From the sequence record PZ534515.1: a DNA stretch of 64,000 nt; one strand, given 5' to 3'. Position numbers and translations under genes: made by a program. This document shows positions 56,512 to 59,423 of the stretch, piece after piece. The stretch is from a phage. The notes under the pieces were generated by a model, which saw nothing but the letters and a program-made list of their open reading frames with translations, had not been told where the DNA came from and ran no database searches. The stretch's first letter is position 1, and each line of letters begins with the position of its first letter.

Positions 56512-56760
56512 ATGGCAACTATCCGCGCAACTGTTAACGAATTTGGCTTCTACTCTCTGGATGTTAAATTTGACCTTGTAGGCACTGACAACGCCTTTGA
56601 AATGGTGAAAGGTCTTATCAGTCAGACCATCAAAGACTATAATCCTTCTGATGAGTTCTGGAAAGAAACAAAACAGGAAGTTCTTAAAGATGGTTACACT
56701 TTTCACTATTGGGGAGAAAAAATCGTCTCCCTGTACTACAACAAACAAGATTATAACTAA
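56512..56760 (+). CDS. small early-type protein 15
   Basis: Start at the leader ATG 56512 (track start 56467 is leader read-through). Confidence 0.5.
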   Translation: MATIRATVNEFGFYSLDVKFDLVGTDNAFEMVKGLISQTIKDYNPSDEFWKETKQEVLKDGYTFHYWGEKIVSLYYNKQDYN

Positions 56761-56798
56761 TCGACGCAGCGGGGCTAAATAGCCCCAGATACCTTTAC

Positions 56799-56824
56799 AG
56801 CCCCTTTCCAATAGGGGCTTTTTT
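56799..56824 (+). terminator. strong intrinsic terminator ending the small-gene array
   Basis: agcccct-ttccaat-aggggct followed by tttttt; preceded by a second hairpin ggggctaaatagcccc. Confidence 0.7.
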
Positions 56825-56825
56825 A

Positions 56826-58353
56826 CGTCTTATGAAATGCCTATACAATCCTTTCCCTTTCCTTTCCAGAATCTTACTAGACCTTAAAAAGCAATAACTC
56901 TATAGCTTACTCTATAGCCTTTTATCAAATCAACTTAAATATAAGCCCATAACCCGAAAGGGAAGGGCAACCATTTAAACGCTCTATAAAGCCCTATAAC
57001 AGCCTTATCAACCCAACTTAAGGGATTGCATTACCTCACCCTTAAAAGCCCTTTATAAAGCTTTCTAGAGCCTTAAAAGAATCTTATAAGGTTGTAAGCT
57101 TTATCATCTCGTTAGTATCTTATGAACTACTAGAAAGGGCTTGTTAGTGTTTTAAAAGTATGTTATAGGGGCTATAAAGTTGCTTAAAAGTAGCTTAAAA
57201 GTTACGTAAATGCTAGCCCCCTTAACATTTTCTTAACAATTTCTTAACAAACCCTACATAGTTATGCTTTTAAGGCACTTGTTAGCAACTTGTTAGCCCC
57301 TTGTTAAATCTCTGTTAAAACCATGTAAAAGCCTTGTAAGAGTCTTTGACATAGCCTTTAAAGCCCCTGTAAAGCCCTATAAAGAGCTTTCTACATAGTT
57401 GGGGTGTAATTACTAGGAAGAGACTTAAAAGAGCTTACAAGGAGCTATAGAGAGCTTTTAAGAGGGCTATTTAGAGAATCACTAAGAAAGAGAGGGAACG
57501 ATAAGAAAAGAGATAGTGACCATGTTAATAGCTTGTTAAAAAGATTAAACACTTGTTAGGAACTTGTTAATTATCTTAACAAAATAACTCTTTAAAATTA
57601 ACTTGTTAGCTCTTGTTAGTCATCTGTTAAGCATCTGTAAAGACTATTCAGCACTTGTTAGAAAACTGTTAAGCCCTTGTTAGTTCTGTTAAGAAACTGT
57701 TAAGACCTCTGAAGAGATGTTAAGAAGATGTAGCAACTGTTAAGAGATTGTTAATGATATTTTAAAATTCTGCAAAGGGGATGTTACAGGGATGTTAAGG
57801 GCTACCAAGCAGATATACATCTTCTACAGATATTTTTGAGTTCCTTCAAAGACCCTAAAAAATGACTTGATAGTCCTATTTTATAAAAATTTTAAAATTC
57901 TGAATAATTACCTAGACAGTCTTTTAAAAATACAGGCATAAACAGGCTTATAAGATACCTTGTTAGTACCGTGTTAGACCTTGTGAGATAAGGTCTGTAA
58001 AGATATTCCTGTTAAGTTTGTTAAAACAGTCTATATAGAGGCTTAGTAATACCTAGTGAACACCTATAGAGGGTAACATAGCTGACATAGAGATTAAGAG
58101 GTGTATAGGGGCTTCTAAGAGTGTGTAGATGTATGGTTAAGGTGATTGTATAGGTTGTTAAGAAGGCTTGTTAGAAGAGTGTTTAGAAGGGCTATACAGA
58201 GGGGCTATTAAGACCACTAGATAGTTACTAAGATACTATATAGTACTATATAACTATATATAGAGAGTAAGCTTAAGGAGGTTGTTAAGAAGGATAGATA
58301 TTTTATTCACATATGATGGTGACCCAGAGGTTGGGACAACCGATAAAATTTTA
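56826..58353. repeat. ORF-free repeat-dense region (phased cttgttag/ctgttaag units, ctataaag units)
   Basis: No ORF of 60 aa or more on either strand over about 1.5 kb; 57600..57760 carries about 12 ttgttag/tgttaag units at roughly 10-11 bp spacing. Confidence 0.6.
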
Positions 58354-58361
58354 TAAAAATT

Positions 58362-58388
58362 AAAAAGCCCCCAATTAAGGAGGCTCTT
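58362..58388 (-). terminator. intrinsic terminator for the minus-strand operon
   Basis: Reverse complement reads agcctcc-ttaatt-gggggct then ttttt, identical to the terminator at 21792. Confidence 0.55.
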
Positions 58389-58396
58389 AAGATATT

Positions 58397-58945
58397 TTAA
58401 ATCAATGTTTCCAGAACTGTCTTCAGTGATGACTTGGTTGTCTGATAAAAATGAGTAAATCCGTTGTTGTTATCAAATATCTGCATCATGATATCATCTC
58501 CCTTGATTGGGTACACTCGGATATCATAATGGAACCCATTAAAGACAGCAGAACCATTACAGAATGCACTAAAGTCATCCACTGAGATGTACTCTTCATG
58601 ACCTGTGATTTTTATACAGATACCTTTACTCGGTCTCTTAGGGTTGATATCTTCCATCACAGACATACTCTGTCCACCAAGAGATACCATAGTGACCACT
58701 TTACGGTTCTTCTGTCTAAAGTACATTTTAACTTTCTGTAAAGTGTCTTCATAGAACGGATAAGACTTCTCTACAAAGATTCCTTCTAATGGCTCTTTAC
58801 CGTTTACAATACCTCTGGTATGACGTACTGAGAAGATAAGTTGCTCTAGTATGTCAAGGCTTTCTTCGGAGAGTGCTTCCCGAATATCATTCCAGTCAAG
58901 GACTAGGTAGTTGCCTTCAACTTCTTTTAAGTTATCTTTTTTCAT
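58397..58945 (-). CDS. hypothetical protein
   Basis: Start placed at ATG 58945 (MKKDNLKEV...) to avoid overlap; track start is TTG at 58990. Confidence 0.45.
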   Translation of the reverse strand: MKKDNLKEVEGNYLVLDWNDIREALSEESLDILEQLIFSVRHTRGIVNGKEPLEGIFVEKSYPFYEDTLQKVKMYFRQKNRKVVTMVSLGGQSMSVMEDINPKRPSKGICIKITGHEEYISVDDFSAFCNGSAVFNGFHYDIRVYPIKGDDIMMQIFDNNNGFTHFYQTTKSSLKTVLETLI

Positions 58946-58958
58946 ATCTATCACACCA

Positions 58959-59423
58959 TTATCGTAAAACTTGGTAATCTGGAACAGCAAACTTGTTGTC
59001 TTTGTTTTTAATGAGGTCTTCTTTTGTTACAAAGAATGTAAGACCACATAAGTGTGTATAGTGGCTACCATACTCAAATACTTTAAGTAAGTATTCGCCA
59101 TCATCATAAACATGCTCTACTACACCTTTTGCAACAATCTTTCCTGTCTTGAAGTCTTTAAGAGGGTATACGTTACCAACTTTAGGAACTGTTTTCATCT
59201 CAGGTTCTTTTAGTTTCTCACCAACTTCTACATCACCTAGTAAGTGAGAACTCTCAAAAGCTACATATTGCATATAAGCTTCTGAGCATTCCCAGATAAA
59301 GCAATGTACAAGAGCCTTAGCAGCATGTCTTGAACAATTCAACTTATCACAAATCTCTTTGTACATTTCATCTTTAGTTGAGTTGTCAAGCATTGCTTTT
59401 TGAACAACTTCTTTAATTTTCAT
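58959..59423 (-). CDS. hypothetical protein
   Basis: 154 aa ORF. Confidence 0.5.
   Translation of the reverse strand: MKIKEVVQKAMLDNSTKDEMYKEICDKLNCSRHAAKALVHCFIWECSEAYMQYVAFESSHLLGDVEVGEKLKEPEMKTVPKVGNVYPLKDFKTGKIVAKGVVEHVYDDGEYLLKVFEYGSHYTHLCGLTFFVTKEDLIKNKDNKFAVPDYQVLR

Follow-up and report, generated by a model that had tools for sequence, protein, structure and literature searches.

A probable direct terminal repeat carrying an oriented 11-bp TGTTA array at the genome ends of a Felix O1-type phage

At the packaging sites of lambda (cosB R sites), P1 (pac hexamers) and SPP1 (pacL and pacR boxes), several short protein-binding repeats lie beside the terminase cut, in systems that have cohesive or headful ends and just three to seven such elements. 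In phages related to Felix O1, short direct terminal repeats (DTRs) have been reported instead. A 608-bp DTR was found in UAB_Phi87 by Bal31 digestion and run-off sequencing (PMC4837284), a 613-bp repeat in Ro111lw was published as a T7-like short DTR from PhageTerm (PMC6454146), DTRs were likewise reported for D4 and its sister phages (PMC11737134), and short terminal repeats were inferred for Felix O1 from its size in pulsed-field gel electrophoresis relative to its sequence length (PMC3185647). Here we analyzed a 64,000-nucleotide stretch of phage DNA (record PZ534515.1, hereafter the window) that contains a region of phased short repeats without open reading frames (ORFs) at about 56826 to 58353. 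An earlier note on this DNA had described the region as ORF-free over about 1.5 kb, and this was borne out: positions 56812-58396 (1585 bp) hold no ORF of at least 60 aa on either strand, and the next longest gap in the window is 389 bp. The same note had offered, as one explanation, that a linear genome has its physical ends joined here, and we found that the termini of related phages do map here, to 57214/57216 and 57806/57808, with the DTR between them.

A search of phage records returned 257 that match the region at 80-95% identity, nearly all of them Felixounavirus or related Ounavirinae from E. coli, Salmonella, Shigella and Citrobacter hosts, and a more sensitive search added Suspvirus and, weakly, Erwinia Kolesnikviruses. 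In all matching phages the region is bordered by the same pair of convergent gene blocks, which consist of small hypothetical genes. Judged by these matches, the window is the genome of a Felix O1-type myophage (Felixounavirus) whose assembly runs through its ends, and its concatemer junction, or terminal region, is the ORF-free stretch. The records of D4 and Ro111lw each carry an exact repeat at both ends (581 and 613 bp, respectively, with prefix equal to suffix) that maps to window positions 57216-57806, starting with GCCCCCTTAAC at 57216 and finishing with GGGCTACC at 57806. The records of H12 and E9 begin at 57216 as do those of D4 and Ro111lw, the NBEco004 record, which is in reverse orientation, ends there, and those of ZX4221 and NBEco005 end at 57806. 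Additionally, the UAB_69 record has a "DTR" feature on the homologous 618 bp, equivalent to window 57214-57808, such that boundaries of the UAB_69 type are two bases wider on each side than the 57216-57806 boundaries of the read-start (PhageTerm) type. Erwinia phage M7 also carries a DTR, an exact repeat of 444 bp whose ends are recognizably homologous. The UAB_Phi87 record (JN225449.1) opens at a point away from the ends, and therefore a prediction of SpeI fragments was used in its place; with the ends set at the homologous boundaries of JN225449.1, the predicted end fragments are 4431 and 2751 bp, and the published Bal31-sensitive fragments are 4322 and 2819 bp (PMC4837284).

By homology to D4, Ro111lw and UAB_69, the window would hold a single collapsed DTR copy of 595 bp at 57214-57808. 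Compared with the DTRs of UAB_Phi87, Ro111lw, UAB_69 and M7, it shows 88-95% identity, the same boundary motifs, a similar length and the same place between two convergent early-gene blocks. Nothing essential differs, and the repeat appears once and mid-sequence in the window since the assembly crosses the ends. We conclude that the genome ends and the DTR very probably lie in this region. For annotators, this placement would show the true start and end of the genome, which are not reflected by records opened elsewhere or by "complete" calls made from assembly overlaps of 64 or 127 bp. The overlaps in question are the record-end "DTRs" of KMM2 (64 bp) and NJ12 (127 bp), which we rejected as evidence on the ends and regard as assembly overlaps inside the true repeat. 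The published "complete, DTR" call for KMM2 (bioRxiv 10.1101/2023.06.01.543199) does not match the physical ends.

The identity of the region is thus already known for this phage group, and its internal anatomy appears to be undescribed; the 11-bp array inside the repeat is not described in the DTR literature cited here for these phages, and some GenBank records carry only short "repeat_region" features within the DTR. TGTTAG occurs 11 times and TGTTAA 17 times in the region, where the rate in the rest of the window predicts 0.26 and 1.1 copies, respectively, and the strand bias of the two words is strong (28 on the plus strand and 4 on the minus strand). Autocorrelation of the region measured against dinucleotide shuffles gave z = 11.0 at a lag of 11, with echoes at lags of 21-22 and 31-32. 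This periodicity was seen in the left flank, the center and the right flank, and by the same test was missing from two coding controls. A position weight matrix (PWM) map of the units yielded the consensus yTGTTA(A/G)g and about 26-30 units in the DTR (about 30 within the central 600 bp). When exact TGTTA pairs in the DTR were sorted by center-to-center spacing, 13 were at 11 bp (TGTTA-N6-TGTTA), four at 22 bp, one at 10 bp and none at 12 bp. The earlier note had counted about 12 octamer copies at intervals of 10-11 bp between 57600 and 57760. The array is indeed there and its repeats are phased, but we count 14 plus-strand units (57602-57757), the period is 11 rather than 10-11, and the repeats fill the whole region. 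The statement that CTATAAAG and CTTAAAAG words dominate the region holds only in part, as these words are enriched moderately, with 15 of the window's 84 copies.

Conservation among relatives separates the parts of this array. The left boundary motif TAGCC-N(1-4)-TTWACAT and the right boundary motif GGSYACYAA each occur once in the window, 595 bp apart, and each of 13 relatives, drawn from four genera, likewise has a single copy of both, with implied DTR lengths of 443-618 bp. The boundary motifs give a read-independent means of locating the DTR in any Ounavirinae genome. Every DTR examined has a lag-11 periodicity. We aligned 12 DTRs, leaving out M7, with the cores defined on the window sequence, which is itself one row of the alignment; in this alignment mean pairwise identity is 0.925 in core columns and 0.781 in spacer columns (p = 5e-10), and 77% of core columns are invariant compared with 48% of spacer columns. 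The long indels that distinguish the DTRs of Felixounavirus, Mooglevirus and Suspvirus are all of 10, 11 or 22 bp, and TWACA cores occur at offsets of 10, 21 and 32 from the left end in the window, Felix O1, Moogle, SUSP1 and M7, which represent four genera. In M7 the orientation flips in the interior, with the left 40% of the repeat inverted. A 22-bp palindromic element found in relatives and not in the window, AATTGGTATTGTTACCAATCCC, lies at DTR position 364 in Ro111lw and at 392 in UAB_69 and UAB_Phi87. It flanks a conserved 27-bp landmark on opposite sides in different phages, and it looks as if a two-unit block was moved or gained independently.

The end units stand close to the ends: the core of the left one lies 9 nt, and that of the right one 11 nt, from the limits of 57214-57808, which places the cut sites within or next to repeats. 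We tentatively suggest that the TGTTA array serves packaging or end processing, although we would put this at slightly less than an even chance. In such a model, terminase would cut the concatemer at two conserved boundaries, TAGCCCCCTTAACAT and ATGTTAAGGGCTACCAA, and the DTR would be duplicated by synthesis after cutting, as in the T7-type model for duplication of the repeat during packaging (PMC10438801). The head-to-tail 11-bp array would then be a protein-binding track that marks the repeat, positions or organizes the cuts and possibly pairs the ends. The small terminase subunit or another phage protein would be the most likely binder, with host ArcA-P as a serious alternative. A safer statement is that the array has the architecture recognized by winged-helix proteins binding in head-to-tail fashion. 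The earlier proposal of an array for a packaging-type DNA-binding protein is plausible and draws support from core and spacer conservation, unit-sized indels and fixed end offsets in four genera. Relative to lambda cosB, P1 and SPP1, the present locus has an exact DTR and two cut sites about 590 bp apart, with the array filling the interval. For the recognition and duplication of ends in short-DTR myophages, a conserved, oriented 11-bp array with fixed cut-site offsets supplies concrete elements to mutate.

The closest architectural precedent, by analogy, would be the terminal repeat of T7 (Teseptimavirus). We checked T7 directly and found 13 copies of CCTAAAG in its 160-bp repeat and both flanks, all in one orientation and with a period of 13. 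Both systems have a short, exact, non-permuted and noncoding DTR, both have a DTR and flanks full of a short oriented word at a spacing of about one turn, and CCTAAAG resembles the flank words CTATAAAG and CTTAAAAG. T7 differs in being a podovirus with its own RNA polymerase, in a repeat of 160 bp rather than about 595, in a period of 13 rather than 11 and in the word itself. Its left end also shows no flip in orientation and is followed by promoters and early genes, unlike the present phage, in which transcription converges on the ends.

Several points weigh against a DTR with a packaging array. The CCTAAAG repeats of T7 are not known to have a function, and the analogy with them does not establish a packaging role. 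Measured from the last unit, the cuts at the left and right boundaries have offsets that differ by 2-4 nt, making simple symmetric recognition imperfect. Searches of Pfam and PHROG with eight flanking proteins and four proteins adjacent to the large terminase gave no small terminase or DNA-binding match; the UAB_Phi87 proteins near the large terminase match PHROG families of "unknown function", and the sole hit was a Cro/C1-type helix-turn-helix regulator elsewhere in the genome. As for the ends themselves, those of the window were placed by homology at about 93% identity, the predicted and published SpeI fragments of UAB_Phi87 are about 70-110 bp apart, and SEP1, a Felixounavirus, was reported from PhageTerm to use headful pac packaging (PMC13431587). 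We weighed the SEP1 report below wet-lab mapping of ends. Taken as a whole, a DTR at collapsed ends together with a packaging array is probably the best explanation of the region.

If the SEP1 report (PMC13431587) applied here, packaging would be of the headful pac type with permuted ends and the region would not be a fixed terminal repeat. We regard this as very improbable, given the Bal31 digestion and run-off sequencing of UAB_Phi87 (PMC4837284), the identical ends in at least seven independent records and the exact DTR of Erwinia phage M7. The repeats could also be the iterons of a replication origin, at which an initiator binds and a nearby AT-rich stretch unwinds. Phased direct repeats beside an AT-rich stretch are found in lambda ori and in the P1 oriR iterons, and the present region has many phased direct repeats, a 40-mer of 87.5% AT at 57870-57916, about 60 bp from the array, and a peak in cumulative GC skew at about 54-59 kb. 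The turn in skew, however, coincides with the switch in gene strand and is thus not an indicator of replication, and there are about 30 units of 11 bp here, compared with the 4-6 iterons of 17-22 bp that are typical. A single DnaA-like box with one mismatch was found and no cluster of DnaA boxes, the neighboring genes gave no initiator-like match in Pfam or PHROG, and the array lies inside the DTR with its units at fixed offsets from the cut sites. The locus differs from lambda ori and P1 oriR in the length and number of its units, in having no recognizable initiator gene beside it and no DnaA cluster, and in lying within a DTR. We consider an origin improbable, and the earlier suggestion of one gained no positive support beyond the AT-rich 40-mer nearby. 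It is slightly more doubtful still that the repeats have no specific binder, being either a slippage satellite tolerated in a gene-free end or a determinant of DNA shape only, through curvature that results from phasing. Indels of one or two units do show growth and shrinkage by slippage or unequal exchange, and many unrelated viral contigs have simple 11-bp tandem repeats. Conserved cores with drifting spacers (0.925 versus 0.781) are nevertheless the opposite of what homogenized satellite DNA would show, and the motif, its spacing and the end offsets persist in four genera whose DTRs otherwise barely align.

The identity of a binder can be considered separately, since binding of the TGTTA array by host ArcA-P or a close OmpR/PhoB-type relative would leave the identity of the DTR unaffected. 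ArcA sites are direct repeats with the core 5′-TGTTA-3′ at 11 bp center to center, with extra units at 11 or 22 bp (PMC4173790; PMC3798270), and the TGTTA pairs of the DTR concentrate sharply at spacings of 11 bp (13 pairs) and 22 bp (4 pairs), which matches this definition. We built an 18-bp ArcA PWM from 115 boxes identified by chromatin immunoprecipitation and sequencing (PMC3798270 Table S3); it reproduces the published scores, and its training boxes range from 9.6 to 21.6 bits with a mean of 15.8. The 595-bp DTR contains 16 ArcA boxes of at least 10 bits and seven of the nine boxes of at least 15 bits in the 64-kb window, and two left-end boxes (22.8 and 22.6 bits) exceed all 115 training sites (maximum 21.6). 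In 13 of 13 relatives, 13-18 boxes of at least 10 bits were found where shuffles predict 0.5-0.8, with the terminal site kept in all. The hosts are all Enterobacterales, and a tblastn search of the window and UAB_Phi87 with an ArcA query sequence found no phage ArcA homologue (best E = 2.4). Repeat patterns of the PhoP, PhoB and CpxR types are absent from the window.

Other features do not fit ArcA. The ArcA unit favors A/T at −3, A/C/T at +3 and an A/T-rich spacer. In the phage units, position −3 is C in 40% and position +3 is G in 29%, bases that are each found in 3% of ArcA boxes, and the spacers lack such AT richness (GCCCC, for example, is common). The DTR resembles the chromosomal ArcA sites of E. 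coli in its TGTTA core, its 11-bp spacing with an occasional 22 and PWM scores that equal or exceed those of the training boxes. The chromosomal sites, however, consist of 2-5 units over promoters, whereas about 26-30 units lie here in a promoter-less DTR. These phages plaque aerobically, where ArcA-P is low, packaging sites are usually read by phage proteins, and we found no paper linking Felix O1 or Felixounavirus with ArcA. Unrelated viral contigs, more than 100 of them, also contain TGTTA arrays at 11 bp, for the most part simple tandem repeats. A scan of IMG/VR for four TGTTA units at 11 bp returned at least 120 stretches; among the matches listed, 13 were Ounavirinae and most others were perfect tandem repeats, which makes the pattern nonspecific and uninformative on hosts. 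On balance, we consider binding by ArcA-P or a close relative unlikely. If it did occur, ArcA-P might act as an accessory factor in end processing, pairing or packaging, comparable to IHF at lambda cos or ArcA in Xer recombination at psi, or the array might be a titrating decoy. The Ounavirinae DTR might then be described as a super-array of ArcA-type boxes, among them the triple unit 9 nt from the left end with its scores above those of the chromosomal sites, and the genome ends would be coated or bridged by ArcA-P or another OmpR/PhoB-type winged-helix protein, a possibility to which we give the same low weight. Such binding would be a novel instance in which a lytic phage recruits or titrates, at the ends of its genome, a global redox regulator of the host; it could place end protection or pairing, concatemer processing or, through titration of ArcA-P, host metabolic control under the influence of redox conditions in the gut host, and would be relevant to the use of Felix O1-type phages in diagnostics and therapy in the anaerobic gut. 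In three IMG/VR contigs that are unrelated to the window and AT-rich, a four-unit site, CAATGTTAAGCCAATGTTAAGAAATTGTTA(AG/CC)..., lies upstream of genes; with its TGTTAAG unit at 11 bp, it looks like an operator in unrelated phages.

Returning to the probable DTR, its left boundary motif TAGCCCCCTTAACAT (57214-57228) is an imperfect inverted copy of the right boundary, the reverse complement of which includes TAGCCCTTAACAT. By the PWM map, three inverted TGTTAA units follow on the minus strand at 57219-57251 and contain two overlapping ArcA-type boxes (57222-57239 and 57233-57250). The first plus-strand array (57266-57376) has six to seven units in 11-bp steps (57266-57332) and then two more (57355-57376), and it is here that relatives vary by deletions of 11 or 22 bp. 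The purine-rich center of the DTR (57380-57520) has no TGTTA and no strong unit, and instead carries GCTWTWAAG-type words, which also dominate the flanks, and an imperfect palindrome. This palindrome (57371-57471) matched Rfam mir-708 at 26.6 bits, below the gathering score of 71, and is almost certainly just a hairpin-like repeat. Four plus-strand units and one inverted unit (57573-57583) occupy 57521-57583, with ArcA-type boxes of 17.7 and 15.0 bits, and are followed by the main array of 14 plus-strand TGTTA(A/G) units at 57602-57757 in steps of 9-11 or 20 bp, in which cores are kept and spacers vary among relatives. The last unit lies on the plus strand in the right boundary (57792-57808), within the cut-site context ATGTTAAGGGCTACCAA that is placed by the ends of D4, Ro111lw and UAB_69. 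Nearly all units besides the three at the left end point rightward, and thus the units face outward toward both boundaries. The sequences just outside both boundaries are conserved even in Erwinia phage M7, as seen at the right boundary, where gcagatatacat in the window corresponds to gtagatatacaa in M7.

The DTR is flanked on both sides by noncoding unique DNA. The left flank (56826-57213), which precedes the terminal DTR copy in D4 and Ro111lw, would lie in the virion just inside the right-hand DTR copy. It is rich in CTATAAAG- and CTTAAAAG-type words with a phasing of 10-11 bp (the autocorrelation z is 4.5 for a lag of 10 and 5.5 for a lag of 11). The words CTATAAAG, CTTAAAAG and CTGTAAAG in 56826-57213 and 57380-57520 resemble the CCTAAAG of T7, and in Felix O1 57-bp intergenic repeats with CTTAAAAG and CTGTAAAG occur elsewhere in the early region (PMC3185647). 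The right flank (57809-58353), which follows the left DTR copy in D4 and Ro111lw, would lie just inside the left-hand copy and has unit pairs at 57959-57980, 58008-58027, 58154-58177 and 58281-58291.

Transcription converges on the region, as the earlier note had also stated, and Rho-independent terminators were found on both strands. The last plus-strand ORF stops at 56760 and is followed by a plus-strand terminator at 56799-56824, with the stem AGCCCCTTTCCAATAGGGGCT at 56799-56819 and then TTTTTT. On the minus strand, a terminator scan placed the end of the operon at 58363-58388, beside the end of the minus-strand ORF at 58397-58990. The terminators at 56799-56819 (plus) and 58388-58363 (minus) thus face inward. 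The plus-strand gene array heads for the right end of the genome and the minus-strand operon for its left end, and the region is noncoding because both blocks are transcribed toward the ends and stopped by terminators. Lowering the cut-off to 30 aa added a single ORF inside the region (35 aa, 57445-57552). An RNA gene in the region was considered and rejected, as an Rfam scan of 56600-58600 gave only sub-threshold chance hits (mir-708, Phe leader and drz-agam-1), and a promoter scan gave 12 sites against 7.4 ± 2.4 expected, an excess that is not significant. A tRNA scan found no tRNA genes in the window; relatives carry about 22 tRNAs, and the tRNA cluster and the large terminase gene fall outside the 64 kb. 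Two minor features of the right flank complete the description: the stretch at 57870-57916 with 87.5% A+T over 40 bp, which is situated about 60 bp beyond the right boundary of the DTR and would be left-end subterminal DNA, and a short ACTATATAG-type tandem repeat at 58233-58262, with a period of 8-10 and about three copies, near the right edge of the noncoding region.

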